Origin: Octopus vulgaris
Taxonomy: Eukaryota
DNA: 64,000 bases
Direction of reading: 5' to 3'
Assembly: GCA_951406725.2 (NCBI GenBank)
Contig: OX597815.1
Coordinates: 122,140,001-122,204,000, forward strand
Shown here: in pieces, positions 8,523 to 44,000 of the stretch
Layout of the letters: each line of letters opens with the position of its first letter
How positions within the stretch are numbered: position 1 is the stretch's first letter
Position numbers and translations under genes: made by a program
Notes under the pieces: generated by a model
What the model was told of the DNA's origin: nothing
What the model saw: the letters and a program-made list of their open reading frames with translations, nothing else
Database searches by the model: none

Positions 8523-8582
<60 letters not shown>

Positions 8583-8768: not shown

Positions 8769-8972
8769 TGTAGACAGTCAGTTCACAAGCAGTTTGGGCC
8801 TGGCCATAGTAATTAATGGCTAAACACCGCCAACATCCAGCATCATTAGGATTTAGATCAGAAATACTCAGATAGTATACATCATGTTCTTTACTTATTG
8901 AATACTTAGACGAAGGCTGGATGATATCCTCATTGTGACTCCAGGTAACTTCAACATCTGATTGACTGCGAA
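8769..8972 (-). CDS. Multi-Ig gene exon: C-part of Ig domain 2
   Basis: atttccag|TT ... A|gtaagt; encodes RSQSDVEVTWSHNEDIIQPSSKYSISKEHDVYYLSISDLNPNDAGCWRCLAINYYGQAQTACELTVY; phase 1 to phase 1. Confidence 0.9.
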
Positions 8973-9695
8973 CTGGAAATAGAAAACATATTGTGTTATT
9001 AAGGATTTAACAATACACTTTATGAAATAGATCATATATACATGCATGCATGCATGCATACATACATACATACATACATACATACATACATACATACATA
9101 CATACATACATACATACAAAAATACCCTGTTGTTGATGTTGAAATTCCAATGAAGGAACCTTGGATCTTGGTTAGAAACTGGTTCTTTCTCTATTGCAAG
9201 AAATCTTGAAATAAACTGAATAATGACATACATGCATACATACATACATACATACATACATACATACATACATACATACATACATACATACATACATACA
9301 TACATACATACATACATACATACATACATACATACATACATACATACATACATACATACATACATACATACATACATACATACACACTCATATATAATAT
9401 AAATATGTACACAAATTGTTTTATATCTATACCTATGAAGTACAGAAATTAATACATGAATGTATATACAAATAGCTGATAATAGTCTGTGTATTATCTG
9501 GTAAAAGTAAAAGTGAAATTGCCATGGAGACATTCCACTCACTATGGCAATTTCATTGAAGTCTTTTTGTCCCTTTTATCCTCATATTTACATGTGTGTG
9601 TATGTGTGTGCATGTACATGTGTGTGTGTGTGTGTGTAAATGGTTTTAATTATTTGTTTGCAAGTAGTAAATAATTAACAAGTAATAAATAATTA

Positions 9696-9992
9696 ATAAC
9701 ACAGGTCGATGGATTATACTTTAACCTGATATTTCAATATTTCATGGTTAGGATCCATTCTTCAGGATATCTACGAAGGAAAGGTGTTGTTGACTAACTT
9801 TCCTGCTCTGTAGAGTGTGCATGTGTATAAGGAGGGTTATTTTGCACGGCTATAGCAATGCAAAACATCTTTTTATACACAGTACAGAGTAGAGAAGTCA
9901 GCCAACAACACTTTTTCTCTATAGACATCACGAAGAATGGATCCTAACTCTGAAAACTTAAAACACTAGATAAAACCATCGACCTGTATTAT
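9696..9992. repeat. Imperfect fold-back of about 300 bp with a hammerhead-like motif in each arm
   Basis: acaggtcgatgg...ccatcgacctgt and ttaggatccattcttc...gaagaatggatcctaa. Minus strand 9765-9728 reads CTGAAGA-atgg atcctaa ccat-GAAA-tatt ga aata-TC. Confidence 0.7.
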
Positions 9993-10863
9993 CTTTATAA
10001 CTAACATTGTTTTGACTGTAAGTAAAAAAAAATTTATATTTTTGAGACAACTTTGTCATGGAAACTATACTACTCTAATATACATGTGTGTAAGTGTTGA
10101 ATGTGTGTGTGTTAGTTTCTGTGCTTCATAGGTCATCGTATAGGTATAAAATAATCTATGTTTGAAATTTGATATTCATATTTGTAATAATAAGCAGGTG
10201 TAGGCATAAAGAACTAATGGAACTAATGTTTCACACAAAAAACAAATGTGCTAATACAATACTTCTTGTCAATTAATTCACAGACAGTATTTGTTTTTTA
10301 CTCTTTTGATACTGCTTGATTAAATAGTACTGCTCAGGTGTTGAAACAATAATGATATCTATCAGGCAGCTGAAGATGAACGATCTTGTAGACTGTGAAC
10401 TTTTTGTATCTTGTGCTCCTATTGTTTTAAGTTGTCCGTTTTTGAAATTCTAGTTCTCATAAGGAGTTCTTGGTTTGTATTAGTTTTGTTGTATATATTA
10501 TATCAAACATTTATATTGCATAATTGTGATTCATAGAGATTCTGATTCTTTATGTAATATTTGTTTAAGGCTTTATGAGGGGTTTTTTTTTGCATATATA
10601 TATACATAAAGAATATGAGGTGCTTAGTTCACTGGTGATCTAAACGAATAGGCACACTGTGTAAGTGTTATAATTGGTCATCCATTAGGTTCTAAGTTTG
10701 CAGCTGAAGCTGGAGCTAGGGATCTGTATTAGGCTTTTGAGTTCTAAATGACTTGAGGTACTCATCCTGCCTTGGTTTTTGCTGTCCTTTTCCCTCAAAT
10801 ATATATATATATATATCATCGTCATCATCATCGTTTAACATCTGCTTTCCATGCTAGCATGGG

Positions 10864-10904
<41 letters not shown>

Positions 10905-11023
10905 AGGGAAGAAATGGAGCTGAACGAAGATTCTACAGAATTCCTTTTATTATTTTCTACACATGTTTCAAAGGCCGCAAATTTTGAATAATCCGTAACA
11001 AGAAAATTCATTTATCCATTTCA

Positions 11024-11500
<477 letters not shown>

Positions 11501-11988
11501 CTCCTATATATAATAATTTGAGGGAATATTATTCCTAACTTACAGGGAAAAATTCAATTTAGAAATAAAAAAAATCAAATTTCACAAAATATAATATATA
11601 TATAAATTAGAAAAAAAACACCTTTTATCAATTCAAAATGAAAAATTAAATTACACCATCTAGAAAATTACATATAATAGAAATATTAAATTGTGCTTCA
11701 CACAACAAATGATGAATGATGGCATGTGCATTGATTACCAAGTGGAAATCAGATAACTTCATACCTATGGCTTGCCAGGAAGCTTTGAGTATTGTATGCG
11801 ACTATTCCATATTTGTATAATATCAAATATAATGAGGTATCCTGTTTTAGTTGTTATATCCAGGTGAATCCATATAGCCGTGTGTGTGTGTGCATGCATG
11901 CACACATGTGTGTCTGTGCACACACATGCGCATGTGTGTGTAGGTATGTATGCATAGATATATATGTGCAGGTATGTATGTCTATATA

Positions 11989-12034
<46 letters not shown>

Positions 12035-12224
12035 CAGATTGATAGATACATACATACAGACAGAAAGTAAAACAAAAGACAACATGAGAGAATGTTTATA
12101 AAATAGTCACTCACACAATCTTACGTATGTTTCATTAACTAAGAAAGATTATTAGTAATGTAAAGTAAATTATACAATCAGAAAGCATTGTCAAATCTTC
12201 AGAGATTTTATATGTAACATTATA

Positions 12225-12258
<34 letters not shown>

Positions 12259-12269
12259 CTTAGATAAAC

Positions 12270-13300
12270 TTAGATATGTTTCGACCAAAGATTGGTCCAG
12301 GCCATGTCTAACTTGATAGCACCACCCGATAGGATTATCTAAATCCTTTTTAAGTCAAGTTTTATGGTATTATGGTCCATTCAAATAGTGAGTACTTCTT
12401 GAGTGAGTTGTATCTAGGTATAGGTGGCTTATCTGGTATTCCTTGAAGAAATTTGTCCAGACTCCATTTAAAGGTGATGGGATCCTTTCCCTCTTTGATC
12501 AGTTTTGGGACAATGTTAAACAGAGCAGAGCCTGTTGAGGAAAAGAAATTGTATCACAGTGTACCTATATGCTGTGATCCTGAATTAGCAGTGGATGTAT
12601 GGCCCATGGTCCCAGCCTTGGATGAATCCTGAAGCTAATGTTTAGGTCATTTGGGCAATGCTGGCAGTATATTCTCCACAATGTGCGACTGATGTACTGT
12701 CACAGCAGCACTGGAGAGAGTAGAGTTTCAAGGCTTTAAGGCGGTCCCAGCAATCGAGATCAGTCATGTCCTTAATTAGTTTAGTGAATGCCCTCTGGGG
12801 TGATTCAATTTTCAAAATGTTTTGTTCTGTATGGGGAGACCACAGGGGACAGCAGTATTTGAGGTGTTGCCATACAAAGGAGGAGAAAAGTGGAATGATA
12901 ACAGCTCTTTCTCTGGACCAGAAGTTTCTTAATATCCAGGAGCGCATCCTACAAGCTATATCGACCTTATTGTTGATGTGAGCACTCCAACTGAGATTGT
13001 TGTCAACAATTACTCCTGGATCTCTGATATTATTCGATGTTGTTAGTGGTTCCCCTGAAGAAAGAGAGTATGGCTGTTTTAGTATAGTCTTTCTTCCAAA
13101 ATGCATCAGCTCAAATTTTCCCTCATTTAGTTGCATTTTGGTTTTGTCTGCCCATTGACTCACCACATGTAGATCAGATTGGAGTTGAGTTTGGTCTTCT
13201 TCTTCATTGATGATTTATTGGGAGCTTAGTGTCATCAGAAAATATTTTCACTTTGCAGTGTTTTACGACGCTGGAAAGGTCTTTTATGTAGATTATAAAG
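12270..13300 (-). mobile_element. CR1/L2-clade LINE 3' fragment (RT C-terminus), degraded
   Basis: ORF 12642-13166: QLNEGKFELMHFG..RDPGVIVDNNLSWSAHI..LKYCCPLWSP..ESPQRAFTK..WDRLKALKLYSLQ. Confidence 0.85.
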
Positions 13301-13849
13301 AGCAGGCCCAAGGCAGTCCTCTTTTATTCTTTTATTTGTTTCATTTGACTGTGGCCATGCTGGAGTATATATGTATGTATGTATGTATGTATGCATGTAT
13401 ATATATATATATATATATATACATATTAGGTGAGTAGATTTAATAGATTAAATATTGAGTTAGTTACTTCTCACTAACTTCATTGATTCCATTACTGTCA
13501 AACAGTGGATAAAACAATTTACTTTGACAAAGCTTCTATGTGGTCACCTACTCTATTAGAAATAGCAGCCTAATCTTCATCACATCACACTCAACCATTT
13601 TAAAAACATGATGGAAACATTAGATTGTGTTGTGTCTTGTACTCTGTTTTTTCGTTGTTTGAAAAAAGTTTGTTTCCATGTTTTTGTTTTTATGTTTTCG
13701 TTTCCCATTGTGTTCAACGTTTTTTTTTATGTCCTGTACCCATATATCCATGTAGATATACATATAGATGTAGGTATGTACATATATGTATGTATATATG
13801 CATATATTTATATTATTATATGATCGAATGCCACGCATCCTTTTCCAAG

Positions 13850-13954
<105 letters not shown>

Positions 13955-14741
13955 TATATATATATGAATATATATATATATATAGTGATTAGGGTATTTA
14001 ACTCATGATTGTAAAATCGTGAGTTTTACTCCTAGTACATTGTGTCTTTGAGCAAGATACTTTATTTCATGTTGCTCCAGTCCACTTAGCTGGCAAAAAT
14101 GAGTTGTACTTGTAACTCAAGTACAAAATGTAACTCAAAGCAAAAGTGAGCTGTACTTGTCACATTCTGCATCATGTTGAATCTCCCTGAGAATTATGTT
14201 AAGGGTATGTGTGTCTGTGGAGTTGTCAGCCACTAGAATGTCAATTTTCAAGCAGATTGTTCTGTTGATTGGATCAACTTGAACCCTTATCATCGTCACA
14301 AATAGGGTGCCAGCGTTTTATGGGTGTTGCACTAATGATAATAAGAAAGTAGTTTCAAATCTTGGACTGGGTAGTAGTGCATTGAATTATTCAGCAAAAT
14401 ACTTCATTTGACATTGCTCAGTGCAATCAGTTGCAAATGAGTTTCAGCAACAGCTGGGGAGTTAATCCTGCAACAGACTGATGTCCCATTCAGGGGAAGT
14501 ATTGTAATCTTAGTAACACACCACAGAAACCAAATTAAACATCAGCTTTAAGAACTCATAAATAGGTTAAACACCATCTCAGGACAGACTTAAGTCTCGG
14601 TCATTGTTCAAAGTCTTTATATTCTGTAATCTGTAATTCTAATAAGTTGCATATAACAATTATATTCAAAGTATCGGTTCACTTTTATATTTTTTGTTAT
14701 AAGACAAATATAATTTGGTTTCATTAACATACAATACTTAC

Positions 14742-14857
14742 CAGTGATAGAGAAGGTCACAGATTCACCAATATTTCTATATTCATCAACCAATGGAAGA
14801 AGAATAACAGGTGGAGAGAGTGGATCAACTTGGGTGCCATCATATGTAATGAAGCGC
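14742..14857 (-). CDS. Multi-Ig gene exon: N-part of Ig domain 2
   Basis: ttcttccacag|G ... G|gtaagt; encodes RFITYDGTQVDPLSPPVILLPLVDEYRNIGESVTFSIT(V); phase 2 to phase 1. Confidence 0.85.
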
Positions 14858-22777: not shown

Positions 22778-22823
22778 GTTTCAGTCTCTAAGTCTTCTTT
22801 CTTCTTTCGTCGATGACGCACTC
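22778..22823 (-). CDS. Multi-Ig gene, 46-nt linker micro-exon
   Basis: tttttcag|GA ... AC|gtaata; phase 1 to phase 2, exactly bridging exon B and the exon at 14857. Encodes (G)VRHRRKKKEDLETE(T). Confidence 0.8.
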
Positions 22824-24839: not shown

Positions 24840-25702
24840 CTTGAATGTCAAAACTTGAAGAGGTGTGTGTAGTCCCATATTTATTTGTGGCCTTACTTGA
24901 ATATGAACCAGCATCAGTTAAATCCAGATCAGTGAGATACATTGACGAAACATTATCGCTGTAAGAAACCTTTGACCGTCGGCTTGATGCGATTTCATTG
25001 CTACTTTTGTACCTGCTAATATCTTCATGGCTACTTTTGTACCTGGTAGTATCTTCAACGCTACTTTTGTACCTGGTAGTGTCTTCGAGGCTACTTTTGT
25101 ATCTGTTGGTGTCATCCAGGCTACTTAGGTACCTGCTAGTATCATCCAGGCTACTTTTATACCTGCTGGTGTCGTCCAGGCTACTTAGGTACCTGCTAGT
25201 ATCATCTAGGCTACTTTTATACCTGCTGGTGTCGTCCAGGCTACTTAGGTACCGGCTTGTGTCATCCAGGCTACTTTTATACCTGCTGGTGTCTTCAAGG
25301 CTACTTTTGTACCTGCTAGTATCATTCAGGCTACTTTTGTACCTGCTGGTGTCTTCGAGGCTACTTTTGTACCTGCTGGTGTCATCCAGGCTACTTTTGT
25401 ACCTGCTGGTGTCTTCGAGACTACTTTTGTACCTGTTAGTATCATCCAAGCTACTTTTGTACTTGTTGGTATCTTCCAGACCACTTTTGTACCTGTTAGT
25501 ATCATCCAGGCTACTTTTGTACCTGTTACTGTCTTCAAGACTACTTTTATATCTGTTTACATCTTCATGGCTACTTTTGTACCTCTTACTGTCATCGTGG
25601 CTACTTCTGTACCTGGTTATATCTTCATGGCTGCTTTTGTACCTGTTAATGTCTTCGTGGCCACTTCTGTACCTGGTAATATCTTCGTGGCTACTTTTGT
25701 AC
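24840..25702 (-). CDS. Multi-Ig gene, exon B: decapeptide repeat array followed by the C-half of Ig domain 1 (minimal repeat-free form 25012-24840)
   Basis: Acceptor aattctttctgatgttaacag|G at 25702 is phase 2 and completes TG|G Trp with exon A; donor CAAG|gtaagt at 24840. Ends YKSSNEIASSRRSKVSYSDNVSSMYLTDLDLTDAGSYSSKATNKYGTTHTSSSFDIQ (DxGxY..A.N..G). The 5' boundary is ambiguous (see findings). Confidence 0.8.
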
Positions 25703-25713
25703 CTGTTAACATC
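24994..25713 (-). repeat. Coding minisatellite, 24 x 30 bp; minus-strand consensus about GAY ACY ARC AG|G TAC AAA AGT AGC CTN GAW
   Basis: Exact 30-bp register with no indels over 720 bp; peptide consensus RYKSS[LH][ED]D[TI][SNT]. Confidence 0.97.
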
Positions 25714-28445
25714 AGAAAGAATTTGGCTTGTATAAGGACGAGATCTTTTCAAGTAATCCATGTCTGTCGTGTCTGAAATGAATTGGATTATATGAGAGAA
25801 GGAGGGCTGTTGAGTGAAGTTCTAACTCAACAGGTAGGTCTTAGCAGTGGTTCCAATATAAATGTGGCTTCTAGGTTTTTTCTTCTTTTGCATCTAAAGC
25901 CCTCCGCCCTGAGTATGAACATTTATTTCTGATATCCTGAAGTTTATTCTGTTGGCAGCAAGTTATTAAAAATAAACTTTCAATTTACATTTATTTGTAC
26001 AGATAGAGCTCCACTATTGGCTTTTGTTTTTGTTGTTTGTTTTTATTTGAAGAAAGTTTTTCCTAAGTTCAGAATGGTTGTCGAAGCTGCTCATGCCACT
26101 GCTGCTGCTGCTGCTGCTGGTCCATCTCTACTAGCTGTGATGCTTTCTCTTGTGCTACCCACTGCTTCTAAGATATGAAAGATTGTATTCATGAAGGTGG
26201 GAGTTACCTCAGCAAGCACAAGTGGCATATACTATTTTTTCCAAGAATCATTGGTAATGTTCTGTAAACACCCACACATACACATACTAAGTTACTATTA
26301 CATAGCTACTCATATCATTAGTTAGTATATAAGCAGCAGCAGCAATGGTAGCATCTACAAGACCAGACCCAGGAATATTTATTTATAAACAGCTGATAGG
26401 TAGCTTGATTTTAAACTATATATTTTCTCAGTTCATCTTACCCTGTGTTGTCATAGCAACTGAGATAAAATTATCCTAGAAAGGCAGCACAATTTTGGCA
26501 GAAGTGCAAAAATAAAAGATAATACAGGTATTACATGAAATTTGACACTGAGTAAGTTATATACCACCTACCGTCTGGGGCTGCTACAGATAGTCCGTTT
26601 CTTTTCTTTCTTTTTCTTTTTCTTTCTTTCTAGAAAGAAGCAGCTATTTCCAAAGAAAGCTTTTTTACTTGGATACTATTTTTGTAGTTTTTAATGATAT
26701 TAGCAATCAATACCCTTCAAGCTAAATCAGTAGTCACTAACACCACACAAAGTAGTTAGTTTTAGAAAAAATATTTTTTAGCTGCTTCTTTGAAAATCTG
26801 TTATCAAATTATGATTCGTGTTTATTAGCAGTTGTAAATATTTTTCATTTTAATTTCTGACATGCTACCATCATTCTTGACATGATACTTAATATTTTGA
26901 ATTATCTAAACTTAGTTTAGTTCCACAAACGTCTTCATAAGTGATATATTATACATTCTCAAACTTTTGCACTGGAAATAAATAAGGTGGCTTGTTAAAA
27001 CTTAAAAGTTGCTGCCTGTGCTTCCATGTAAGTTGTAACTTAGTCTTTTTCACAAAAGAAGTTAACATATTTGAAAGGGATAAATAGTTACCATATTTTC
27101 TTCTACCATTTCTTCACTGCTTTAATATGCAAAAGATTATGATAGATAAGTTTTCGTATAAAGAGCCTGCAGGTGGCCCATTAACCAAAAGTTAAACAGT
27201 TTATAGCCATCCTATTTGCCATATTGCATTGTAGCCCTATCAAAGATATCTGATTCTCAATAGCCCGTTTTCCTTACCTGTACACAGGTACCATGCTAAG
27301 GTTTTGTTACTTACACAACATAATCAGAGTTAGTGGAATTGTTATAAAGTACATCATACAGATTTCAATGATAGGTAAAATATTACAAAAATATTACACA
27401 CCTGACTTTAATGAATATAGAAAGATTAAATACAGTGCAAAAATAGTAAGTTATACATTTGAGAAGTGTAATACTTAAGTGTGCAGTAAATGAAGATTAT
27501 CAGAATCTTGCTAGGGCTCTTAAAATCTGATGTGATTATTGAATAAAAAGAAAGCAAAAATGCCACTGGAATTTAAATGTTGTGAATCAGGCTTGTCTTA
27601 AGTGCAGTCAATGTGAAATAACATTTACAAATGTCACAGTTGATGGGAAAAGTGATCTGGAGACCTCCCCAGATCTGGCAATGTCAAAGAAAATGGTAAG
27701 ATAATATGTTAAAAAAACCCATTTTACTCTCTCTCTCTTATGTTCTATCTTTTATCATCAGACTGTGGCCATCTTGGAGTACTGCCTTGATGGTTTACCA
27801 CCCCCACTACTTGTATTTTTAAGTGGTACTTATTCTATCAGTCTCCTTTGCCAAACGACTTAGTTACAAGGATGTAAACAAACTAACATGGATTGCTAGT
27901 CAAGGAGTGGGGGCTCAAACACAAATATAAAGGTACACACATACATATGCATACATATATATGCATAGATATGGCAGGCTTCCACACAGTTTCCATCTAC
28001 CAAATTCCCTTACAAGGCATTGGTTGATCCAGGGTTATATTGGAAGACGTTAACCTGAAGTGCTCTGCAGTGAAACTGAATTCAAGACCATGTGGTTGCA
28101 AAGCAAGCTTCTCAATTGCACAGCCATGCCACCACTACATCATAGTATCACTGTATGGACCTACTTTCAGATGGTGTTATACACTGCTGGTCATAATATG
28201 CTTCACATCCTTTTAGCTTTCGAATGATGACACTCTGCTGGCTAAGCAGGCAGGCCAACATTTCCATCAGTCCATCACAAGAGCATCCATTTACAGCTGA
28301 GTGGACTGGAGCAATGTGAAATAAAATGTTTTGCTCAAAAACACAATGCACAGCCATTCTGGAAATTGAAACCCCAATCTTCCAATCGTAAGTGCAACAC
28401 CCTAACCACTATGTCATGTGCCTTCATCTGTACTACATAATGTAA

Positions 28446-28480
<35 letters not shown>

Positions 28481-29839
28481 CTTTATTTTAAAAGCATATT
28501 ACTCTACCACTGGTATTTGAGTACTCTTTTTTCCATCTTGTTTCACATTTATGTGTTTACTCCGGTATATATATATATATATATAAAAGAAAGATAATAT
28601 GATTGTGCATTCTATGCATTCACTTTGCATCTGTATTCCTGAAGACCATGATACCAATGATACCATGAATAGGACCAGGACTTGGAATAATGAAACTTCT
28701 TCAGACCATAACACAACCCTACTTTCTTACACAGTGCTTTGAAACCTGCTGAGATTTAGTTCCTCACCAGAGCAATTTCTCACATACATCTGGGCCACCA
28801 GTTCTGTGTTGGTTGAACTTAATTTAGTCTGTCCACTCCACTGGCAATTGAAATGACTGCTCTGTCAGTGATAGATCCATGAACATGTCCCAAAAAAAAG
28901 ACAAATGCCAAAGACAACAACTTATATAAAACAGAGTCTGAACATGTACAACAGATTTGAAGCTATCAGTGAATCTGCTTGTAGAGGATTTGACTAATTT
29001 GATTAAATCAGGGCATGGTTTCCATGGCTGGATGCCTTTTCTAATGCCAACCACTTTATAGAGTGTACTAGGTGCTTTTCTCATGGCAACAGCACAAGTG
29101 AATATTGCCTTGTAACTTGCAAGGCTAAGGGCCTAAATGGTCCCTATAACAGAGGAAGAACAAAAGAGAGAGTGAGTAATGATTCTAGGTTAAGTAAGAT
29201 GAGAGGAACAGATTTATTTAAGGTGTATAATGTAAAAAAGAACACGAGAAAAGGAAAAGGAAAGGTATCAGTGACAGGGGTCAAGAGTGGACAGAGAGGT
29301 TGTGTAGAAGGTGTCTAGGGAAAGGGAACAAATTTTAAAAACTTGCCCTGGGACTCTAAAATTATGTTACTGAATATTCTTCAGAATTGCTACAAGCACT
29401 AAATATCACTTTCCTTTACAAGATTCTTCTTCATCAAGAGAAATATAGCTAGTTGTTGATTTTTTGGGTGTATCATAAAAAAAAAAAAAAATTAAAAAGA
29501 ATATTGGGATCTATGGGGGAGGAAGGTGTTTATCTCATCTTACTCTTAAGAATTTTCATTCTGATCATTTTCTCATTTGAAATCCATTCTCTAACTAAAC
29601 AGAAGATTCTGTCATAACTGAACTAACTGTATGAAGATAAAGTTACATTGTTCTAAACAAATGCAGCTGTAAATAAAATGAAGACGTCACACATGAATAA
29701 CTTTTACCAGGCCACCAAATTATATGAAGTTGAAACGTCACACACACAAACACACACACACACAAAGACACAAACATGCACAATTGTTTATTCATGGCTA
29801 CAGTTGTAAAGTGAACTTCTAACCCCCATGCTTTGGGGT

Positions 29840-31560
29840 TCCATCATACTGTAGAATATCTTGAGCAAATGTCTTCTACTGTAACCTCAGTGTGATAAAT
29901 GCCTTGAGAGCGAAATTCTTTAGAGGGGTTGGGATGCGATAATGTTTCTTGATGTGTGCACTGATGGGTTTTTTTGTTGTTGAAGAAGACAAGGTTGGCA
30001 TGATGCCACTGGAGGATGTTTTCAAGGTCTATGTTCAAGGAGTTAGTGCAGGTGTAGCATGAGGTATATTGGTTGTATGTGTATGAAGCTTAACTATGGA
30101 AGGTTAGAGAGGAATAAAGGGTGGTGTCATCTGTGTAGGAGTGAACCCTGTTGGAGGTGATAGCAAGTAATTGTTTATGTATAGAAGAAAAAGTGTGACG
30201 GCCAAAATAAAACCCCAGTGCACACCATAATTGGCAGAGGGAAGGTTGCAGAATGTGCTATCAGCACACACTGTAAGTATGTGACCTGAGAAGAATACAT
30301 TGAACCAAGAGATGAGGCATGAATAAAGCTGATAGGCAGGCAGTTATTTCAAATATTCATGTACCAGATATTGATGAAAGCATTGCTGATATCACGAGCA
30401 ACAATACCAGACATAGATGAAAGCTTTGCTGATATTGAGAGCAATAACACTACTTTTATCAAAAAGTGCAGCAGCCTCCGGTGAGTAATATAGGGCAATA
30501 AGTTTCAAGTAATTATGAAAAACATTAATTGTAGTTATTTAGGAGGAGAGAAATTCAAGCTGTTACAGGGTTTTTGCTAATGGCTGCCTCCATCTTTGAG
30601 ATGTTTTCAATGAGTGTAATAAGACAGTAGTTGGCAGAGTCAGAGAAATTTTACTTCCAGGGAATGGAACAAGTGGTAGATTGTTACTAAAGATCACAGA
30701 GAATAACTGAAGAAGCATCATCAGGGCTAGTAGCCTTTTTGATTTGAAGTGACCAGAGTTACTTTTGTACTTGGCATGTATGTGTGTTTGGTGGTGAGCT
30801 TAGTGGAATGGAATAGAAAGGGAAAGCTTTGAAGGATAATTATTTCACATGTACAGTGTTGTTTTGGATGCAAAGTTAAGATTGAAGCTGGAGATTTTCT
30901 CCACAAGAGTGCTGCTCACAAAACCATCATCATTAAGAAGTGGGAGGAAAAAAATTCCACAAAGTTGATAGTGATGTTCTTGACAAGTGACCAGAAGGTT
31001 GCAGTTTAATAAGTGTGAGAGCTTATGATTGTTCAATATATGGAAGCATTCAGTAGAGCACCTCATCTACACATCAGAATAGGCGGGCGTCAGTGTTAAG
31101 GAGTGTTGTGAGTGCTGAAGTCATTGATAATGGTGACTTTGGAGTGGAGCAGGGTGAGATAGATATCACCAATGCAAGAAGGGATAAGAGATGATTTTGG
31201 TTTGAGGAGTTTGGAGAGTGGTAGAGAGAGCAAAATTATTTGAAGGCGTAGAAAAGGGAGACTTTGAAACAAAGTAACTGGAAGTTTATAGCTAACATCA
31301 GAGGAAGGAGAGAGTAAAATTTACAAATGTGCTGACACCAACTTTTGACATGAAGTTTGAGTAAAGCGTTCAATGTAGAGAGCAGAGATGGACTACAGAT
31401 AGGAGTTGACTATAGATAGAGATTTGTATCATAGGCAGGAATAGGATGTGTGGTTTGTGTGTTTGTAAGAGGTGATGATGTATGAGATGTAAGCTGGATC
31501 AGAGTCCCAGTGGAAGAAAAATATTCTGCTGGGTTTAGTTTTACCTTCTGAGATTTAGGG
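29840..31560 (-). mobile_element. Heavily degraded LINE (RT and endonuclease remnants)
   Basis: Minus-strand remnants resembling HSY(A)DDT (about 30125-30143) and GVPQGS(V)L (about 30205-30226); many stops. Confidence 0.55.
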
Positions 31561-33222
31561 AAGTATAGGAGCTGTTGCTATGTCATGATGCCATAGTAAC
31601 CATTTGTCTAGTTTAAATGCTTGCAACAGTGTAAATTCTAGTGAAAGAACTTCATATAACCATCTGGCGATTTTAAAGTGGGTGGTGTGATGAGTCTAAT
31701 CACCCCCATCCACACAAACGGTTGGGTAGGATTCTATGCCATATACAACAGGACTACATATTTATGCACAAACAGATGTAGGACCATAATGTAAGTAAAC
31801 CCTCAGATACACACAGCTAGTCAAATCTACACACACATGCCAGAATGGAAAACAATGATGATGAGGTGGATGGTGAGTGCATGCTGACATGGGGTTACAC
31901 TCAATTGGTTCTTGATGAATTACCAAAGTTAAACAGACAGAATCAGCATTAAAAAAATCTGTTTATCTTTTAATAAATTATAATATTGATAAACAAAAGA
32001 AATGATAATGTTGCCAGATTTATTTACTCTTTACATCTGTTTACTTTGTAGAAGTTTTGCCAGGGATGAGATTTTGAATACTGGTGGTATAATGTTCTTT
32101 CATTGCTCGAATAACATGCAAATGTTTGAAAATTCTGAAATTTCCTCTTAAGGCAAACAACTTCAGTGACATTTAAAAGTATATAATCTGCCTATATCTA
32201 TGCTAATTAAAGCAAGTAGAATTAAATTTCTTGTTGAGAGGTACAACACAAAAACCATAGATTCAGTTCTATCATATTCTACATGTTTATGGAAGAACAT
32301 ATAATGATTAAGCTTTGTAAAGAGATTAAACATAAAACCTCAAAGAAAATACTTTGATAGGAGCAGGCATGGCAGCGTGATTAAGCAGCTCACTTTGCAA
32401 CCATGTGATTTTAGGTTCAATCCAACCTTTGACAAGTGTCTTCTACTGTAACATCAGGCCAAACTTAGAAAGCCTATTCTTGTCAAACTCATTTATCCTT
32501 TGTCTACACATTGATTAAACACACACATACACACACACAAACACACACACACACACACATACACACTTATACATACACAAAGAGAGATTCCAAACACTGA
32601 GCAGGTGCCTAAACATCTTAACTGATCATTCCTAAACATTCTTTTTCCAACCTCTAGACCCATGCAAACAAATTTAAAGCTTTTTGAATTCCTGACGTTT
32701 TTCAATGAACAGCTGATATCTTTCACTCACATGTTTAAACGATAGGCTCGATAGGCTCGTTATTTCAGAGCTTTTAAAAAATTCCAGTCAGAATGAAATA
32801 GTACAACTAATAATTGTTTCTAATTTTGGCACAAGGCCATCAATTTTAGGGGTGGAATAAGCTGATTTCATCACCTCTGTACATGACTGGTACTTAGTTT
32901 ATCAACCCTGAAAGGGATGAAAGGCGAAGTTGAACTTGATGGAATTTGAATTCAGAACGTAAAGCAGGAAGAAATGTCATTTAACCTTTTGTCCAGAATT
33001 TTAATGATTCAGCTTGTTCACTACCTTTCAAGAGTATAAGTTGTAAAAAAAAATGGATTTCTCCTACTTCTAACTACTTTTTTCTTTTATTGATACATAC
33101 AATATACGCACAACTGCTGACATGCTATACATACATACACACATATATACATAATATATACATGCATACATAACACGTACATATACATATATAAGTACAC
33201 ACACACACACACATATAAGTAC

Positions 33223-33280
<58 letters not shown>

Positions 33281-34083
33281 AAGCACCAGTTATGTTGGAC
33301 TAGATACCTTATTAGAATGAAGGCTAGTAGGATGCCTAAGTAGATGCTATATGGGGAACTTGTGAATGGAAAGAGACCCCAGCAGAAACCAAGGCAGTGA
33401 TATGTGTTCAATATATATACACACAGACACATACTATATACATATACAAGCACACACATACATATGATGGGCTTCCATGCAGTTTCCATTTCCCAAATTC
33501 ACTCACTTAGTATTCGATGACCTGTGGCTATAGTAAGAAGACATTTGTCAAAAGTGTCGCCCAGTGGAACTGAACGTGCAACTATATGGTTGCAAAGCAA
33601 ACTTCTTAATGACACTGCCATGTCTGGAAATAAATTCTTCATATTTTATTCTAATGAATATCTCTTCAACATTTCCTTACATTTTTATGTGTAATCAAAC
33701 TTAATAAAAAATCAAGCAGTTCACATCATGTGAGGTGACTAAATGGCAAAGTCATTAAAGCATCAACACAATGCTTCACAGCATTTATTCCAACTCTCTG
33801 TGCTCTGAGTTCAAATCCTACTGAGATCAACTTTGTCTTTTATATTTTCAAGGTGAATTGAAAAAAAAAATTAGCAATTTAAAGCAGTGGATTGGTGGAA
33901 CAATATGAAGAACAGACTAATTTTTGAAGTATTTATTCAGTTCTCTCTCTTTTTTGCATTCGGAGTTCAAATCTTACCATGCTCTACATGCATTGTAGAC
34001 TTAACCCATCACCCAGTTTAACTCCATCACCTAACATCTTGGTGGCTCAATAACAAATCATAGATACTATCTTCTCCCCCAAC

Positions 34084-34311
34084 TTAAAACTTTAGCATTT
34101 AAACTGGCCATATTTGGCCAAAATATTCCACCTGTTTTATGTCCAAGCTAACCAGATTCAGACTCTCACACCTGCCCTACCATGTCAATCTAAAATATAA
34201 ACAGTTACATCAGAAATCTCAAAGCTACAAGATAATGCATGATTAATTCAAAACAATGTAAATATCTTAAGTATTACATTTGACTGAGTAATCTGAATGC
34301 TATAAGGTTAA
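34084..34311. mobile_element. TTAA-flanked (piggyBac-type) MITE
   Basis: ttaaaactttagcatt ... aatgctataaggttaa; second copy at 35593-35800 ends aatgctaaagggttaa. Confidence 0.6.
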
Positions 34312-34933
34312 AGAGAAAATAAAGTACTTATGCTAATCTTTTATCTTTTATTTGTTTCAGTCATTGGACTGCAGCCATGCTGGGGCACCAAACTGAGATT
34401 TAGAGAAACAAATCATCCCCAGTATTTATTTCTTTATCTGATACTTATTCTATTGGTCTCTGTTGCCAAACCACTAAGTTAGAAGAATGTAAACAAATCA
34501 ACACCAGCTGTCAAGCAGAGTGGGGAAGACAAATACAAACACAAACACGCACATACATGCATACATACATACATACATACATACATACATACATACATAC
34601 ATACATACATACATAATTCAAAAACTACAGATCCAATCCATCCCTGGAACAGTAAAAATTTGTAAAACTTGCCACCAATTTATCATTTAATTATATATGC
34701 GCATGTCTAGGTATGCAACTATATGCATGAGAATACAGACATAAAGCAAAACAGACAAATCTGAACATATGCATGCACACATGCGTACAAACAAAAATAT
34801 CCTGTTGTTGAGGTTGAAATTCCAATGAAAAAGCCTTGAATCTAGGTTAGAAACCGGCTCTTTCTCTATTGGCAAGAAATCTTGAAATAAAACTGAACAA
34901 TGACATACATACATACATACATACATACATACA

Positions 34934-34964
<31 letters not shown>

Positions 34965-35210
34965 GAATACAATGGGCTTCCTCACAGTTTCCATTTACCA
35001 AATTCACTCACAAGACATTGTTTGGCCCAGGGCTATAGTAGAAGATACTTGCTCCAGATGCTACACAATGGGACTGAACTGAAAACCATGTGATTGCAAA
35101 GTGTACTTCTTAACCATACCGCCATGCCCACACCTACAGAATATTCTTTTCAGAAGCAACAAGAGTATTATTGAGTCTAACAGAAGTGTTTCATGCAATC
35201 CTTCCATGGC

Positions 35211-35800
35211 TTAACCCTTTTTTTACCATATTTCTGTTGAAACACTGCCTTTCATCATCATCATCATCATCATCCTCATCATCATCATCATCCTCATCAT
35301 CATCATCATCATCATCATTTAACATCTGCTTTCCATGCTAGCATGGGCTGGACGGTTTAACTGAGAACTGGTGAGCAGAGAAGCTGCACCAGGCTCCAAT
35401 CTGATGCCTTTGTTTCAATTAATTTTTAAAATCATTAAAAATTTAGTAAAATAACTTTGGCCATAATTAAGCTAGTGTTTGGAACATAAATTAACATGAA
35501 ATTTTGATGGAAGGTTTTAATTTAGATCACTTTGACATGTTGCCTGTGTCATAGAACCAGGGGTGGTATCAGGCAAGTTGGAATCAAAGGGGTTAAACAT
35601 TAAGCATTTAAACCAGTTGTATCCAATCAAAATCTTCAACTAAATATCCTGGTATCTCACATCTATTCTACAATGTCATTATAAAAATGAACAATCGCAA
35701 CATTGAAATCTTCAAGCTATGAGATGATGCATGATTAATTCAAAACAATGTGAATAAATAAGCATTACATCTAACAGTAACTTGAATGCTAAAGGGTTAA
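35211..35800. mobile_element. Two adjacent piggyBac-type MITEs sharing the TTAA at 35593-35596; the first is interrupted by a SINE tail
   Basis: TTAA-cccttt ... aaaggg(g)-TTAA, then ...aaaggg-TTAA; SINE stub at about 35253-35405. Confidence 0.6.
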
Positions 35801-37589
35801 GATGTAGAAGACCAATAAATATCCAGGAATGATTGAATAAATAATTCTAGAACTTCAAAGCCCCAGGAAAAAAAAGTACCGCATCAAATATTATATGAAT
35901 CTTCAGCATTGGAGTTAAAGCAGGAAATAAACTGAAGATGATGGAGAGATCATGCTGTAAGATATCAACCTTTCCCGCTTTATTTTCCAATGATCTCTCC
36001 TGTTTGAGCCTCCAGGTATCTCTCCCTCTCCACTGAGCTACATTTTAGGTCTGCCATACCTCATCTATAACAGCCTCTCATACCTGCTATCATTCTCAAT
36101 GTACTCTCATATTTACTGTTGACAACTCTGCCACCACCACCACTCATTATAGCCACCATTGTATTAATTATTATCTCTGATGTTTGTGTAATGTTAATGA
36201 GCGTGACCAATGAGACAAAAATGAAGCAAGAGAAAATCTTGGTATAAGAAAAAAATGGATGTTGTGTGCAAGAGACCACTGTGGTGGTAAGGACATGTAA
36301 TGTGTATATGGATGATAGTAGTAGTTCCAAGAGATTCGAGTAGAAGAAAACTGTGGAAGAGGAAGACCAAGGAAGACATGAGCAGAAGTATTGATAAAGG
36401 CCATTGATCTGAGTGTTGTATCATACAAAAAAAAAAGATGACAAAATAGAGAGTATCTATCCAACACATGTAAGCATGGATAAACAGATGTAAAAAATGA
36501 CAATAACAATGACAACAACAATGGTGATGATGATGATGATGACTTTGGGGTGGAGATGTAGTGAAAGAAATTTGGATAGCAAACAATTAGGATATACAGT
36601 TACGTGCTTTCTCGTTTAGATTTAATACTGCAACGTTAAATATTTTAATGAAAATAGAAACTATGCCAGGAGTAAAATGTCTGAGGATATTAGATGAGTG
36701 TTCTATAAAGATTGTTTAACTTGTTATGTTTAGATGCAAGAGGATTCATGGTTGGATAGATGAAGAGATTTTCAGCAGTGTGCAGTGTTAGAGGAATTTG
36801 TTGGTTATACGAACACTAGAATTGATTTCAAAGAGAAAATCATATGTGTTTTTCTGCTGCAATGCTGTGTTGTTGAGTGGTGAGTAGGAAGATCTACTTA
36901 AGCTAATGTAGGTGCATTCAGACAGAGATCAGAATACATAGATACACTTTTTAAAGCAGATAAATTTGCTGATTGTGTTTATGCTAAAATCATTGTTGTT
37001 TTTCTTTTTTTGCTTTCTTGGTCATATTTTTGCACAGAAAATGGGATATAGATATATAACAAAAATAATAATAATAAAACCTACTTGATTTTTGTTATTT
37101 AGCTTCATATAAGAGCTTATCTTCTTATGATCAAAGTATTTCAACCATAATCTTCCTGTCATTTTACTACAAAATGTCTAAAAGTGTATCAACTACTAAA
37201 AGTGAGTGATCTGCTTTGAGCAGCATTTTTAGGTTTACATTTCAAATATGTATTTTATTCTGTATTTGATAGAGGTTGGGGATGTGGCAAACTCAAAGAC
37301 TATGCCTGGTGGCACTAGCTTGTCTAGCTACATCACTCTCACATTTTCCAATGTGTTCTTCCTTTTTCAAGATGGTAGGATGTGATTTGAGGGTTATTTG
37401 GCTGTTATTTTCTAGTATGGGAAATGACTCCTCAGTAGCTCAACATCTTGCTTTGTTTCAGAGGAATATGGTATCTCATTTTATCTATAACCTTTTTTTC
37501 TTGTCTTTTACCTGTTTCTATCATTAGATTGTGGCCATGCTGGGGCACCAACTTAGTCAAATAAATCAAACCCAGTAATTTTGTTTTTT

Positions 37590-38720
37590 CAAATGTGATT
37601 TTTTTCAAGTGTTGAAAACATTCTGTGATTTGTTCTGGATCTCAACAATTGTGCTAAAACAGCAACCCCTGAGCTGCATTTTCAGCTTGGGGAAGAGATG
37701 GAAATCCACAGGTGCTAAATCTGGTGAATAGGGCAGCTGTGGAAGCGATACCATGTTGTCTTTGGCAAGAAACTCATGAGTGAAGAGAGCTCATGACAAG
37801 GTGCAGTGTTGTCATGAAGAATCCAATTCTTCATGCTCCCCAGATCCGGTTACTTTTGCTGAATGTCTTCCATCAAATGCATCAAAACGTCACAGTAAAA
37901 TTCTTGATTGACAGTCTGGCCCTGGGGGATGAATTCTCGATGCACAATACTGCAGATTTCACAAAGAACAATAAGCATGCTCTTGATTGAGCTGTGGCTC
38001 TGTCATGCTTTCTTCAATCATGAAGATGAAAGCCTCTTCCATTGTGATGACTGCTGCTTCATCTCAGGGTTGTGCCTGTGGACCCAACTCTTCTCACTGT
38101 AGATGATCCTCAACATGAAGGAAGAGTCATCAGCAACACTCTGATGGAGATCTTGACAGACTCCATTGCAATGTTCTTTTTGCTCATTGGTCTGCAGGTG
38201 GGGGACAAACTTGGCATAGACACGCCACATTCAGACGTTAGGATTACCTCCAAGGACCCATATGGTGGACTAGCAACATTATCAATGTCGTTGATTGTCC
38301 TCCAATGATCCTTATGTACAAGCTGATGGATTTTCACCACATTTCCAGGGATGACACTCAAGACAGGTCTTCCAGATTATTCATCATCTTCCAGGGATGT
38401 TTTTCTGCTTTTGTAGAGTCCATGCCACTAAAAACATTGTGTATGGCCCATTGCCTTGTTGCCATAAGCTTACCAAAGCATGCTCAATGTCTCTGTAGCA
38501 GATTTTCCAAGTTTACTAGAAAATTTCATGTCAGCTCTTTGTTCCAACTTCCTGTCTATGATAAAAAATTGCAGACTACAGCATACATGTGATCACAAAA
38601 ACACAAATTTCACAACTTGTGAAGTAAACACAGTGAAGTCACCCAGCACACTGACTCATGAAGATCTCTACTAGCTCTCACTGCACACAACTGTGTGTTG
38701 CCATCTGTTGGCATACGATG
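37590..38720 (-). mobile_element. Mariner transposase pseudogene
   Basis: Minus-strand motifs AKFVPHLQTNEQKEH, SEKSWVHRHNPEMKQQSSQWK, WILHDN and PYSPDLAP (about 37711-37734), with frameshifts and stops. Confidence 0.88.
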
Positions 38721-38899
38721 GAACTATTCTACTCTTTTGCTCTTTTACACATTTCAGTCATTTGACTCTGGCCATGTTGGAGACTTATTCTTTGTAAGCC
38801 TAGTACTTATTCTATTGGTTTCTTTTGCTGAACTGCTAGGGACATAAACACACCAACATCAGTTGTCAAGTGATGTTAGGGAGACAAAGACATACACAC

Positions 38900-38941
<42 letters not shown>

Positions 38942-39120
38942 GTGTGTGTGTGACAGGCTTCTTTCAGTTTTCATCTACCAAATCCACTCACAAGGCATTA
39001 GTCAGCCTGAGGCTGTAACAGAAGACACTTGCCCAAGGTACCACGCAGTGGGACTGAACCCAGAACCATGTGGTTGAGAAGCAAGCTTTTTGCCACACAT
39101 CACCTCACACACACACACAC

Positions 39121-39163
<43 letters not shown>

Positions 39164-39164
39164 G

Positions 39165-41070
39165 GAGGTTGTTTGTAATGGCTAGTCAGAGAGTGGCCAT
39201 TGGATTTGCACCTCCACCATCAAATGAACTCTACATGAGGATGCTGCTAGAAAAGATCATTGACCTCATAAAGCACTTGAGATGGAAGGCGTACTTCTAT
39301 GACCAAGTCATGCCATCCTCAGAAGCCAATGCTTACAATATCAGATCCAGGCAGTTCCCACCCAGATCAAAGACCTCGAAGCCTTTCAAGCAGATCTACT
39401 GGACATCATCATCCCCAAACTGAGATTCCATAAGTCCTCTTGCTCCTTTCAGCACAAGCACTCTTCTGATTTACATCTTAAAAAATTCAGATAGGACTTT
39501 ACACTTGTCTGACAAAACAAAAAGTATATATAATGTAAACACATGCACATATTATAAGCTTTTAGAGAATAGCATCACACTGAAATATAAACATACTTCC
39601 CCACATGCATACGATAGTATTGACAACAAAGCCGAACAGTTGACCAACAGTCTAGGTACAGCTGATGGGTTTGAAGTATTAGCTAAGAGAAATGCCTTTA
39701 TCACCATCAAAGACCACAAACCAAACTTTGCCTCTTACCCTGAATGCTGCCTGATTAACCTGGCAAAATTGGAAATCAGGCTGGCAAGCAAGCATAAAAT
39801 GAGACAGATCAATAATGACATAAGGAGAGCATCTAGTCTCCTTATGGCAAAGTGCCAATGAAATTATTTTGTGGTTTAAAGTTCTCCCAATTTGATATAG
39901 TGGATGAGTGGCTGTGTGGTAAGTAGCTTGCTTACCAGCCACATGGTTCTGGGTTCAATCCCAGTGTGGCACCTTGGGCAAGTGTCTTCAACTATAGTCT
40001 CAGGCCAACCAAAGCCTTGTGAGTGGATTTGGTAGACAGAAACTGAAAGAAGCCCGTCGTATATATGTATATATATTTGTGTCTGTGTGTGTGTGTTAGA
40101 GTGTTTGTGTTTGTCCCTGCAACATCGCTTGACAACCGATGCTGGTGTGTTTAGGTCCCCGTAACTTAGTGGTTCGGCAAAAGTGACCGATAGAATAAGT
40201 ACTAGGCTTACAAAGAATAAGTCTTGGGGTCGATTTGCTCGACTAAACATGGTGCTCCAGCATGGCCGCAGTCAAATGACCGAAACAAGTAAAAGAGTAA
40301 AAGAGTAAAGAGCACATCAAAAAGGTTCTATCTGATAGGAATTTTACTTACAGTAGTGATAGGAACATAGGCATTATTATGCTTGCTAGGAAAACACTGC
40401 TGTTCAATAAAGGTTTGACTTGGATCAAACAAACTGACACAGTAGGCTCCTTCGATGTGACAATGGGAGCTTTCGACAGCACAATGTCTGCGAACTCATA
40501 GAATTGTATATACTGGACTCCTTAACAAAGAGGTTCTTGTCTGTCCTTTTTGGTTCATACAGAGATGCCATTTTAGCCATCTCTGAAGGTGCTAACAGAC
40601 ATATCCTAGATAGTCTTAGGGAGGGCCTAATTTGCACCCTTAGTTCCCTTGGACTTAAGATTACAATAGAGACCAACCTTATCATTGTCAACTTTTTAGA
40701 CGCTACATTGCACCTGGGTACTTGTTCATACAGGTCGTACTGCAAACCAAACAAAAAGCTGTTGCAGATTAAAACAGCCTCCTGCTACCCACCTATTATG
40801 TTCAAGAACCCAATGAAGGGTGTCAGTAAGAGGATTTTGAATCTGTCCACCAGTCAAGAAATTTTTGATGCTACAGACCCCTCTTATAATGAGGCTATGG
40901 CTCCAGCAGGTTTAAGCACCACATGTCTTATACACTGGGCCCTAACACCCACAAAAGGAGGTGCCACCATAAATTCATTGTTTGCTCTACCCTTATCACT
41001 CCACATGAAGACTTGTGTGGAAAGGATATTCCTTAGATTAGTGGGCAAACACTTCATACAGTCACATTAA
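39165..41070 (+). mobile_element. Penelope-like retroelement RT pseudogene, interrupted by a SINE
   Basis: IKHLRWKAYFY; SDKTKSIY; AFITIKDHKPNF..CCLINLAK; QFDIVD; IIMLARKTLLFN; FDVTMG(A)FD; YRDA; LGLKITIETNLIIVNFLDATL; YCKPN. Confidence 0.8.
39901..40310 (+). mobile_element. Full-length tRNA-derived SINE with CORE-like segment (reverse copies 42273-42668 and about 38730-39105; forward copy near 47445; many fragments)
   Basis: gtggctgtgtggtaag (A box), gggttcaatccc (B box), accttgggcaagtgtctt core, internal (TG)n, and (GAGTAAAA)n tail. Confidence 0.85.
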
Positions 41071-44000
41071 TGTGGTGGGACTGAACCTGAAACTACATAT
41101 TTGCAGGCAAGCTTCTTAGCCACACAGCCATGCCTGCATTTATTCTTTTTTATTTTTATCTTTTTTTTACAAACTTAAATAAATATTGATAAACCACTTG
41201 AAAGAAGAAAGACTATGGATGCTTGGGAAATGTATAAGATATGAAGGAACAGTTTAAGAACACGCTGGATTAAGGAACTGAATTCTATACACAAAAATTC
41301 TACTAAGATTAATATTAAGAGCTTGCTGTAAAAGTAGAAAGTTGAGATGTCTGGCCAACATCTTAGCTTTGTAAAATCGAACAAGTCAACACAGAAACAT
41401 GAGAAAAGCATTAATGCTATTATTATCTGTAGTTATTCATGCCAAAATCAGTTTTGCATTTTATCTTTTTGGAGTTAATAAATATAGTACCCCCAGTCTT
41501 GGGTTGTGGATTGGCAGAATTGTTAGAGCACTGGACCAGATGCCTTGTAGCCATTTGCATTCTGAGTTTGAATCTTGCTCTGGCCTATTTGTTTAATAGA
41601 CTAAATCTGTCACCAAGTTTAACACTTTCACCTGGGTCTATTAGCAGAGTCTGCTCTGTTACAAGTAGTTGGATCAGGTCTCTAGTTTGAGAAAACACTT
41701 TTCCCACTCTCCTTTTCATCAGTTTTAGAGACTTAGATACTGTACGTCCTCCTTGATTAAGAAATTTTAAAAAAAAGTTGATACAAGTCAATGATTTTCT
41801 GTGTGATTTTTCAGGACATTTTCTTCTGTTTCTGTTGCATCTTTGCTGTCTGGGGCCAACTTTAATTTTTTATTGTTTTTTTTTATAGCATGGTCAGAAG
41901 GAAAAGGTAGCTTCCATAAGTAGGGAGAAGGAAAATTATCCACATGATTAGAGACACAGCCTAAGTACTTGCAACAGATTGAGTTCCACTAAATCCACTT
42001 AAGAACTAAATAGTGTCATTAAACTGAGACAATTGATTATGGCTAATGTGAAAAAATGCAAAAGGATATGTCCAAGCAGATGGTTCAGTTACCTGCTGAA
42101 CTGTTTAAAATGGATTAGAAGTGAAACATTTGCTACCAAGGGTACTTAGCATAGAACTGGTGGAGCTCAGAACAGTAAACTGACTTAAAGTATTGGATAG
42201 TGTAAGGATACACTACAAGGATCATTGGACAAATCAATGGGTGTTACAAGTAAATGAAAGACAACAACACCTCTTTTACTTGTTTCAGTCATTTGACTGC
42301 AGCCATGCTGGAGCACCACCTTAGTCGAGCAAATCGACCCCAAGACTTATTCTTTGTAAGCCTAGTACTTATTCTATCGGTCTTTTGCTGAACCACTAAG
42401 TTACGGGGGCGTAAACACACTAGCATCAGTTGTCAAGCGATATTGGGGGACAAACAGACACACAAACATATACACACACACAAATATATGCACATACATA
42501 TATATGATGGGCTTCTTTCAGTTTCCGTCAACCATATCCACTCACAAGGCTTTGGTTGGCCCGAGGCTATAGTAGAAGACACTTGCCCAAGGTGCCACGC
42601 AGTGGGACTGAACCCAGAACCATATGTTTGGTAAGCAAGCTACTTACCACACAGCCACTCCTACGCCTGAACACAATGAAAAAAACAAAAGCTCATCTAT
42701 TATGGCCATATTCAAAGAAGGAGATGTGCAGTAAACATTATCATGGAAGGAAGAGTGGAGGGTAGTAGATCAAAAGGCAGGAAAAGAATACAAGGGATGG
42801 ACAATATCACAAGCTGGCTGGACAAAAATGGCAAGAGAGCTGGAGAACTTGTATTTAATCAGGAAGTGTAATGTGTTGCAGGTGTAAGATATATGATGAG
42901 GACAAGTGTATGGATGAATAGTAGGTGTCCATGATTAAACAGTGGTTGAACAATCCTGTAGGTGTCACAGACGATGATACTTTGACAAAGTTTAGGTTTG
43001 GAGGTGAGAAAGCAGTGGAGGATGCTTTGATGTGTCTGTGTTGATGTGATGATCACATATACAAGTAAGTGATGATATAAATTGTTGTAGATAGATTAAA
43101 TTGGGAAAAAATTTGGTTTCTATGGCAGTAACAATGGCTTGAGAGGAGTGAGAGAGAGGACCAAGAAGGGCTATGGTTAAAATCACTGAGAAAATGGACT
43201 TATGAGTAATAGTGCAAGATGACTATTCTTGATGAAAGAGAGGAGATAAGCCAAGAGTTGCTGGTAGTTGGAGGTGTTCAGAAAGTAACAGAGACAGTAG
43301 AGGACTGTAGGAGAATGAGGAATGAGTCAGAAGACCTGAAGGTCTTTGCAGTTGATATTCTGCTGAAGGAGGTGAGTAGTGGAGAGAGTTGATTAACTCA
43401 GACATCACCTTTCAGACATCACCTTTTTATTGATTTGGTCTCAAGGATGGAATTGTGGCTATGGTCTTCAGAGACTCATGGAAACTGATGATTCCAGTTT
43501 CTTTGCACAGTGTACCAGTAAGTTAACAGCTGCAGAAAAAATATATGCTTGGAGGGTATTTCAGCGAGATGACATTCTTGGGAGGAAGGGCTGGACACAG
43601 AGGTAAGTGTGGGCGTCTGGAGGATGAACACAATATAAGTGATAAGTAGAGGAGAGATGAGTGAGTTAAGAGTGCTTAAGTGGAGAAGTGCTTAAATGGA
43701 GGAGACACAGCCAGTTGCAAGGAGCAGATGTCATTGAAAAAGCTTCAAAGAAAGATTGTCATTAGCCCTCACAAGGATCCTTGTTCTCCTCTCATCCTTG
43801 CAAGTCTTGAACAATACTGAATTGAAACTCTAAAACTCTGTAAAAATGCTAGGCCTCACAATCAGTGATGAACACTCCTGAGTAGCCCCCTTATTCATGA
43901 CAGCAAAACCTCCATCCCCAAAGCAGCATTCTTCATCAGAGCCAAAAATTCTTCAGTATTAATCCATTACTGACTCTCTTCAAAGCTCATGTAAAACTCA

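Follow-up and report, generated by a model that had tools for sequence, protein, structure and literature searches.

A predicted muscle kinase gene of Octopus vulgaris contains a 24 x 30-bp repeat array that is retained whole in RNA contigs and, at contig sensitivity, is entered by splicing only at unit 1, its most upstream copy. The array lies within a 64,000-nucleotide stretch of DNA (contig OX597815.1, positions 122,140,001 to 122,204,000), referred to here as the window. It is very probably a protein-coding minisatellite kept in its entirety, in an exon that is entered internally at unit 1 and is also the likely first exon of a shorter transcript. The preliminary description of this DNA had read the repeat as a possible graded splice ladder. 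That idea is not supported by the RNA, at contig sensitivity: the array is retained, the sole junction seen is that from the upstream exon A to unit 1, and no internal splicing appears.

The array (24994..25713, minus strand) consists of 24 in-frame units running from 25702 to 25012 at 30-bp spacing. Each unit corresponds to the last 11 intron nucleotides and the first 19 exon nucleotides around the acceptor that splits the Ig domain following the kinase, and the consensus decapeptide is D-T-S-R-Y-K-S-S-L-E, whose Arg-Tyr codons spell AG|GT. The core reads CAG|GT in 19 units, GAG|GT in 1 and CAG|AT in 2; AG is missing from the other 2 (CAA|GT and CCG|GT), and in-frame AG|GT is kept by 20 of the 24. 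TRF reports a period of 30, 23.5 copies, 81% matches and a score of 719, and a genome-wide search places the array at a single locus. Only unit 1 has a pyrimidine tract, and only unit 1 is a used acceptor. A recount on the sequence reproduced the array coordinates, unit counts and AG|GT variant counts given earlier, and a splice-site scan did the same for the restriction of the pyrimidine tract to the most upstream copy. An A>G difference at 25540 was rejected as a case of A-to-I editing, because the transcript strand shows it as T>C.

The reading frame is open from 25821, with an ATG at 25761, upstream of unit 1. Since the frame is open to this ATG and the stretch is exonic in RNA contigs, the 11 "intronic" bases of the unit are also coding. 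Thus the earlier assignment of these 11 nucleotides to the intron holds for the long isoform; in the likely short isoform, they are coding.

Judged by its chain of Ig and Fn3 domains with an Fn3-kinase-regulatory tail-Ig core, the gene is a sarcomeric kinase of the titin/twitchin/MLCK family, an assignment made by domain order rather than by a tree and to no subfamily. When snail and cuttlefish proteins are mapped on the window and the adjacent genome, the exons of an Ig-Ig-Fn3-kinase-tail core immediately precede exon A. Among solved structures, twitchin and titin (PDB 3uto, 1kob, 6ygn) are the best matches to the cuttlefish Fn3-kinase region. No description of the gene or array was found in the literature searched, in which subscription journals are thinly covered; the Octopus entries of PMC12198301, as far as its available text goes, may include this gene. 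Many Ig domains follow the kinase in octopus. Upstream of the kinase, on the minus strand (G000:C2:122229492-122403340), at least 109 consecutive Fn3 matches are interrupted by hardly any Ig domains; near-identical multi-domain blocks are repeated within this run, which reaches the edge of the examined stretch. The run suggests an unusual Fn3-only giant protein of the titin family, on the presumption of a single transcript.

All exons of the gene in the window lie on the minus strand. Exon A (62934..63051) encodes the N-terminal half of the post-kinase I-set Ig domain (Pfam I-set positions 1-34). Its 3' end is the TG of the C-strand Trp, at a phase-2 donor; the exons at 7887 and 2143 end alike, and the exon at 5965 begins with a G matching the TG of its upstream exon, all in agreement with the preliminary description. 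Exon A is followed in the long, kinase-containing isoform by a 37-kb intron (25703..62933), defined by the exon A to 25702 junction in two runs. A tblastn search with two orthologous C-halves found no alternative Ig C-half exon in 25800-62900, so the earlier assumption that no overlooked exon there completes the Ig domain of exon A stands. The C-terminal half of the I-set domain (24840..25011), in which 33 of 57 residues are identical to cuttlefish, ends at a donor shared by both isoforms and is spliced to a micro-exon (22778..22823) encoding a basic linker conserved in cephalopods and gastropods. Additional Ig exons of this gene, located by tblastn with P0001, P0002 and P0234, lie at about 14742-14850, 8769-8961, 7887-8013, 5790-5965, 4869-5117, 3488-3611 and 2143-2284, with three acceptors in this span (2143..14850) approximate.

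The F-strand Cys of the post-kinase Ig domain (window 24841-25011) is Ser in the window and in P0001 and Cys in all non-array orthologues seen; from the sequence, this domain may be relaxed in octopus. An interspersed repeat at window 23788-23850 (plus strand) and 6776-6859 (minus strand) is annotated as an exon in P0001 (residues about 410-465) and apparently also in the unrelated O. bimaculoides models P0018, P0035 and P0037, a recurring annotation artefact. Broken frames at window 12642-13214, 46021-46362 and 63149-64000 resemble what we take to be LINE reverse-transcriptase fragments.

Evidence from RNA was drawn from 8 of 24 public runs, all as assembled contigs: X1, X3, X8 and X14 on the array, and X4, X6, X12 and X16 on exon A. 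That these runs are RNA was assigned by the tool as a guess, which the spliced junctions and the lack of cover on introns support. In 4 of 4 array runs, loose ends at 24839 show 24840 spliced to the micro-exon with the intron uncovered, which supports these runs being RNA. Exon A is joined to unit 1 (25702) in 2 of the 8 runs, X14 and X16, from two studies, as had been predicted for exon A and the array exon. In X14, a loose end at 25703 is identical to the end of exon A; in X16, exon A is followed by a 26-mer unique to unit 1 among the 24 units. This junction is seen only in 2 low-depth contigs, both from organism B. At contig level, no other junction is present in the 8 runs, and no joint between array units is listed. 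The repeat-free 62934>25012 junction (exon A to unit 24) that the earlier description had put forward was sought in the contigs of all 8 runs and never seen. In X12, part of exon A is joined to the upstream kinase-tail exon and cover stops short of the exon A donor; X4 and X6 are without cover on exon A. The X16 junction contig still includes the intron upstream of exon A (window 63052-63140); in that molecule, removal of the 37-kb intron therefore came first.

Because a repeat is difficult to read from its contigs directly, retention was examined with simulated 31-mer unitigs. A fully retained array predicts seven unitigs. All seven are listed for X1, with array-side ends as predicted; five of the seven are among the pieces listed for X3, and five are among those listed for X14, in which the top piece is split exactly as the exon A to unit 1 junction predicts. 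Contig breakpoints fit a fully retained array in 3 of 4 runs, in a tally covering the pieces listed (139 small pieces lie outside that list). In simulation, 191 of 195 possible internal splices would break the predicted pieces and 4 would be invisible; 20 of 21 other acceptors for exon A would also break them. The remaining run, X8, has extra contig breaks at window 25496-25525 and 25084-25113. Of its two extra breaks, one is reproduced in simulation solely by a single-base variant, and the other by a join from a later unit to unit 7 and not by a forward splice; for the forward splices 2>7 and 4>7, the simulation gives additional breaks, which X8 lacks. The unit-7 join could be an allele, a template switch or a back-splice. 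Because assembled contigs drop rare variants, the retention results bound common splicing only.

Splice matrices were built from the gene's own sites, namely 18 acceptors (5 of 23 intended could not be placed and were dropped) and 23 donors, the latter chosen by a rule that favours the consensus. The unit 1 acceptor scores 8.6, close to the median of 9.3 for real acceptors (n=18); units 2-24 score from -10.9 to -1.1, and four of them lie slightly above the weakest real acceptor. Position +4 is A in 23 of 23 real donors vs 0 of 24 units, since an A or G there would create an in-frame stop; a consensus donor (G|TAA) would thus be out of reach of the array's reading frame. Joining exon A to unit 1 regenerates a donor that scores 0.9, below all 23 real donors (2.5-13.1). 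Since dual-specific sites are reported to work despite weak scores (PMC10809524), this splice-score argument is softer than the RNA evidence.

The ladder could nevertheless persist in a milder form, in which the array is mostly retained and only a minority of transcripts, or an unsampled tissue, splices it in frame through tandem dual-specific sites like those of human UBC. The 20 units that keep in-frame AG|GT would suit such splicing, weak sites suffice for it in human UBC, with VCX3A cited as a similar case (PMC10809524), and 6-16% of mRNA was spliced at an engineered AGGT duplication (PMC3265369). Low-depth, hybrid-looking 60-nt contigs also occur in X3 and X8 (depth 3.5-12 vs 700-1800). 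However, no joint is listed, the long flank contigs are intact in 3 of 4 runs, and the X8 breaks do not match forward splices. The 30-nt unit lacks a pyrimidine tract, AG-free zones span 0-16 nt vs 15-77 in real acceptors, and synonymous changes freely destroy the AG|GT motif. In addition, removal of a single unit would fall below a minimum intron of roughly 60 nt (PMC3265369). On balance, minority splicing of this kind is unlikely. Distinctly unlikely is a variant in which a UBC-like ladder, confined to the rare kinase isoform or an unsampled tissue, sets how many phosphorylatable decapeptides break up the post-kinase Ig domain there, with all 24 kept in the abundant short isoform; if true, a single repeat would serve one isoform as protein and the other as a splice signal.

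Recursive splicing or intron birth would have exon A join unit 1 and the regenerated donor then join unit 24, restoring a canonical Ig domain in the kinase isoform. Indeed, the 37-kb intron ends in the real acceptor of unit 1, with a GT directly after it, and first-to-last joining would give a domain of the cuttlefish length. The exon A to unit 1 contigs could in principle be intermediates, and in X16 the intron preceding exon A is still present in the contig. Recursive splice sites, however, combine a strong 3' motif with an adjoining strong 5' motif at an AG/GT within a long intron (PMC6110457), and here the acceptor of unit 1 is strong and the regenerated donor, at 0.9, weaker than every real one. 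Moreover, unit 24 scores as a median decoy acceptor, and the break at 25013 in the 24840-25144 piece, expected for exon A to unit 24, is found in 0 of 4 array runs, including X14 with its exon A to unit 1 junction. The earlier proposal of recursive splicing thus receives no support from exon A to unit 24 joints or from the donor, and that of an intron being born conflicts with a duplicated segment that the contigs retain rather than excise; this whole scheme is exceedingly improbable.

Whole retention as coding sequence is also consistent with the pattern of change among the units. There are no in-frame stops in the array, vs 7 and 48 in the other two frames, and pN/pS among the units is 0.28. 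Variants of the consensus include 12 of 16 possible synonymous vs 17 of 74 non-synonymous changes (p=1.4e-4); the test on transversions alone gives p=0.009, and that on transitions alone p=0.13, which is not significant. Given the transition result and the shared history of the units, this selection test is supporting rather than decisive. AG|GT is lost in all 4 changes to the Arg codon, of which 3 still encode Arg, indicating that AG|GT is what Arg(AGG)-Tyr(TAY) spells. Among ordinary acceptors of this gene, AG|GT occurs at 5 of 18.

Unspliced cover extends upstream of unit 1 in 4 of 4 array runs to at least 26015, and in X3 to 26361; beyond 26361, none of the 4 array runs has cover in the 37-kb intron. 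These upstream-unspliced transcripts all share the donor at 24840 with the long isoform, and they make up most contigs, with the exon A form seen in fewer. Thus, the array exon is likely a hybrid first/internal exon, which also begins a kinase-less isoform from an internal promoter, as in titin Cronos. The likely 5' UTR of the short isoform (25762..26361, minus strand) is intronic in the long isoform and holds 14 upstream ATGs. It is followed by the ATG and a 20-residue leader (25703..25761), a segment that overlaps the pyrimidine tract and AG of the long-isoform acceptor. A strong acceptor-like AG at 25773 is read through by the contigs; it was rejected as the true exon start for this reason and for its phase, which does not match exon A. 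We infer an internal promoter near 26.36 kb, where a candidate core element (26379..26395, minus strand), an E-box adjoining a TATA/MEF2-like element, lies 26 nt upstream of the X3 contig end; the motif is not significant alone, being present in 24 of 100 shuffles, and the start site is placed by one run (X3).

The upstream cover might instead represent a retained intron or pre-mRNA, leaving the long isoform with its insert as the sole real product and dispensing with an internal promoter. Transcript starts and expression levels are invisible in contigs, three runs end near a CAG repeat at 26080-26120, and both the 14 ATGs and the promoter motif, not significant alone, could be taken in this sense. 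However, cover stops by 26361 within a 37-kb intron, X1, X3 and X8 have no exon A branch at all, and five orthologues without the array share the conserved Met and leader. The absence of an internal promoter is therefore very unlikely.

The hybrid exon appears to be older than the array. The cuttlefish long proteins P0002 and P0234 and Pomacea P0010 have an intact I-set domain without the array, and the orthologous cuttlefish exon has a single copy of the unit and a canonical W-Y-K I-set domain. The preliminary description had anticipated such single-copy orthologues, and they favour its reading of the unit as a duplication across the acceptor. The short protein P0245, which shares a 90% cluster with the cuttlefish long proteins P0002/P0234, has a 20-residue leader ending in D-L-Y-R and then the Y-K-D-G half-domain. 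A leader with the same Met position is found in five non-array orthologues (P0245, P0246, P0242, P0004 and P0005); aligned gap-free to the window ATG, 11-13 of the first 27 residues are identical in these five, and 27 of 27 in P0001. This conservation indicates that the D-x-x-R half of the unit is coding in the short isoform and that the ancestor had one unit. The array numbers 24 units in the window and 22 in P0001, with the ends conserved and the middle different; a homologue search found no near-length homologue of the array exon. In P0006-P0009, which are gastropod gene models only, this Ig half-domain is preceded by leaders of their own, 160-270 residues long; these are similar in pairs and begin with a Cys/His-rich stretch. 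An internal start may exist across molluscs.

These comparisons suggest a plausible history. The coleoid ancestor would already have had the hybrid first/internal exon, with its acceptor embedded in the codons ...D-x-x-R|Y-K. A 30-bp piece across this acceptor would then have been duplicated in the octopus lineage and expanded by slippage or unequal crossing-over, the ends staying conserved as the middle turned over. The duplicated unit would have carried the AG and not the pyrimidine tract, so that the first AG still wins.

In the runs examined, the main product would then be an Ig protein that lacks the kinase and carries, N-terminally, about 240 residues of charge-neutral R-Y-K-S-S repeats. 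A giant kinase isoform would be the rarer product, its post-kinase Ig domain interrupted directly behind strand C by an insert of 230 residues. The net charge of the repeats is -1, and they contain 23 R-x-x-S motifs, the motif of basophilic kinases. This net neutrality and the abundance of R-x-x-S make a phosphorylatable spacer the most likely of the putative roles; that the repeats are such a flexible spacer is still a tentative suggestion. AlphaFold, run on the 307-aa array exon without an alignment, gives a mean pLDDT of 48.6 and a pTM of 0.15. The ESM Atlas holds no usable match for the repeats, and Pfam matches (Extensin_1 and others) are far below cut-off and were set aside as compositional. 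Similar Arg/Tyr/Ser/Asp-rich tracts lie further downstream in octopus and cuttlefish. In octopus, a second such low-complexity tract lies in a 2000-codon exon of the same gene (about G000:C2:122048700 downward); in cuttlefish (P0234 residues about 1690-1770), it is expanded into its own 10-residue repeat.

For models of intron gain by tandem duplication and dual-specific sites, the array can serve as a naturally occurring negative control, with 20 in-frame AG|GT sites beside a working acceptor and yet no internal splicing detected at contig level. Two reasons for this are visible: the unit has no pyrimidine tract, and a consensus donor would be a stop. The work also points to a Cronos/telokin-like internal start that halves an Ig domain in a giant muscle kinase gene of cephalopods, perhaps also of gastropods, and to an octopus-specific repeat as a candidate phosphorylated spacer in cephalopod muscle. 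Telokin is a kinase-less C-terminal product of MYLK made from an internal promoter, to which the predicted octopus short form is similar. The order Ig-Ig-Fn3-kinase-tail-Ig is that of the twitchin, titin and MLCK kinases; unlike these, the octopus gene has its long, nearly Ig-free run of Fn3 matches upstream and many Ig domains after the kinase.

As in the Rogers model of intron gain, the duplicated segment holds AGGT or an existing acceptor (compare ATP2A1, PMC3265369; potato RdRp, PMC4974935; PMC2812944). The duplications in those cases include a pyrimidine tract and branch point and are spliced out, whereas the octopus duplication lacks these and is retained under coding constraint. Human UBC and VCX3A likewise have an in-frame tandem repeat with AGGT spelled by an Arg codon in each unit (PMC10809524). 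UBC has 228-nt units and an RT-PCR ladder; octopus has 30-nt units, no pyrimidine tract and, in the contigs, no internal junction. Since the UBC ladder is published, the splice-ladder idea would already be precedented even if true.

The closest parallel to the short isoform is vertebrate titin Cronos, also from a titin-family gene, which likewise starts in the intron directly before an internal exon and yields a C-terminal isoform. In the available text of PMC4720518, the Cronos start was mapped by RACE and an in-frame Met lies 7-12 codons before the exon, compared with 20 codons in octopus. The likely octopus start differs in lying downstream of the kinase and within an Ig domain, leaving the short form kinase-less and with half of that domain; it is known from contigs and has a repeat at the junction, a feature absent from the account of Cronos in that text. 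Finally, the array exon resembles the hybrid first-internal exons described for human (10.1101/2021.05.27.446076). Those have CpG-rich upstream sequence, whereas the octopus region is AT-rich, but in both cases one exon can be first or internal, in a long gene with a long flanking intron.
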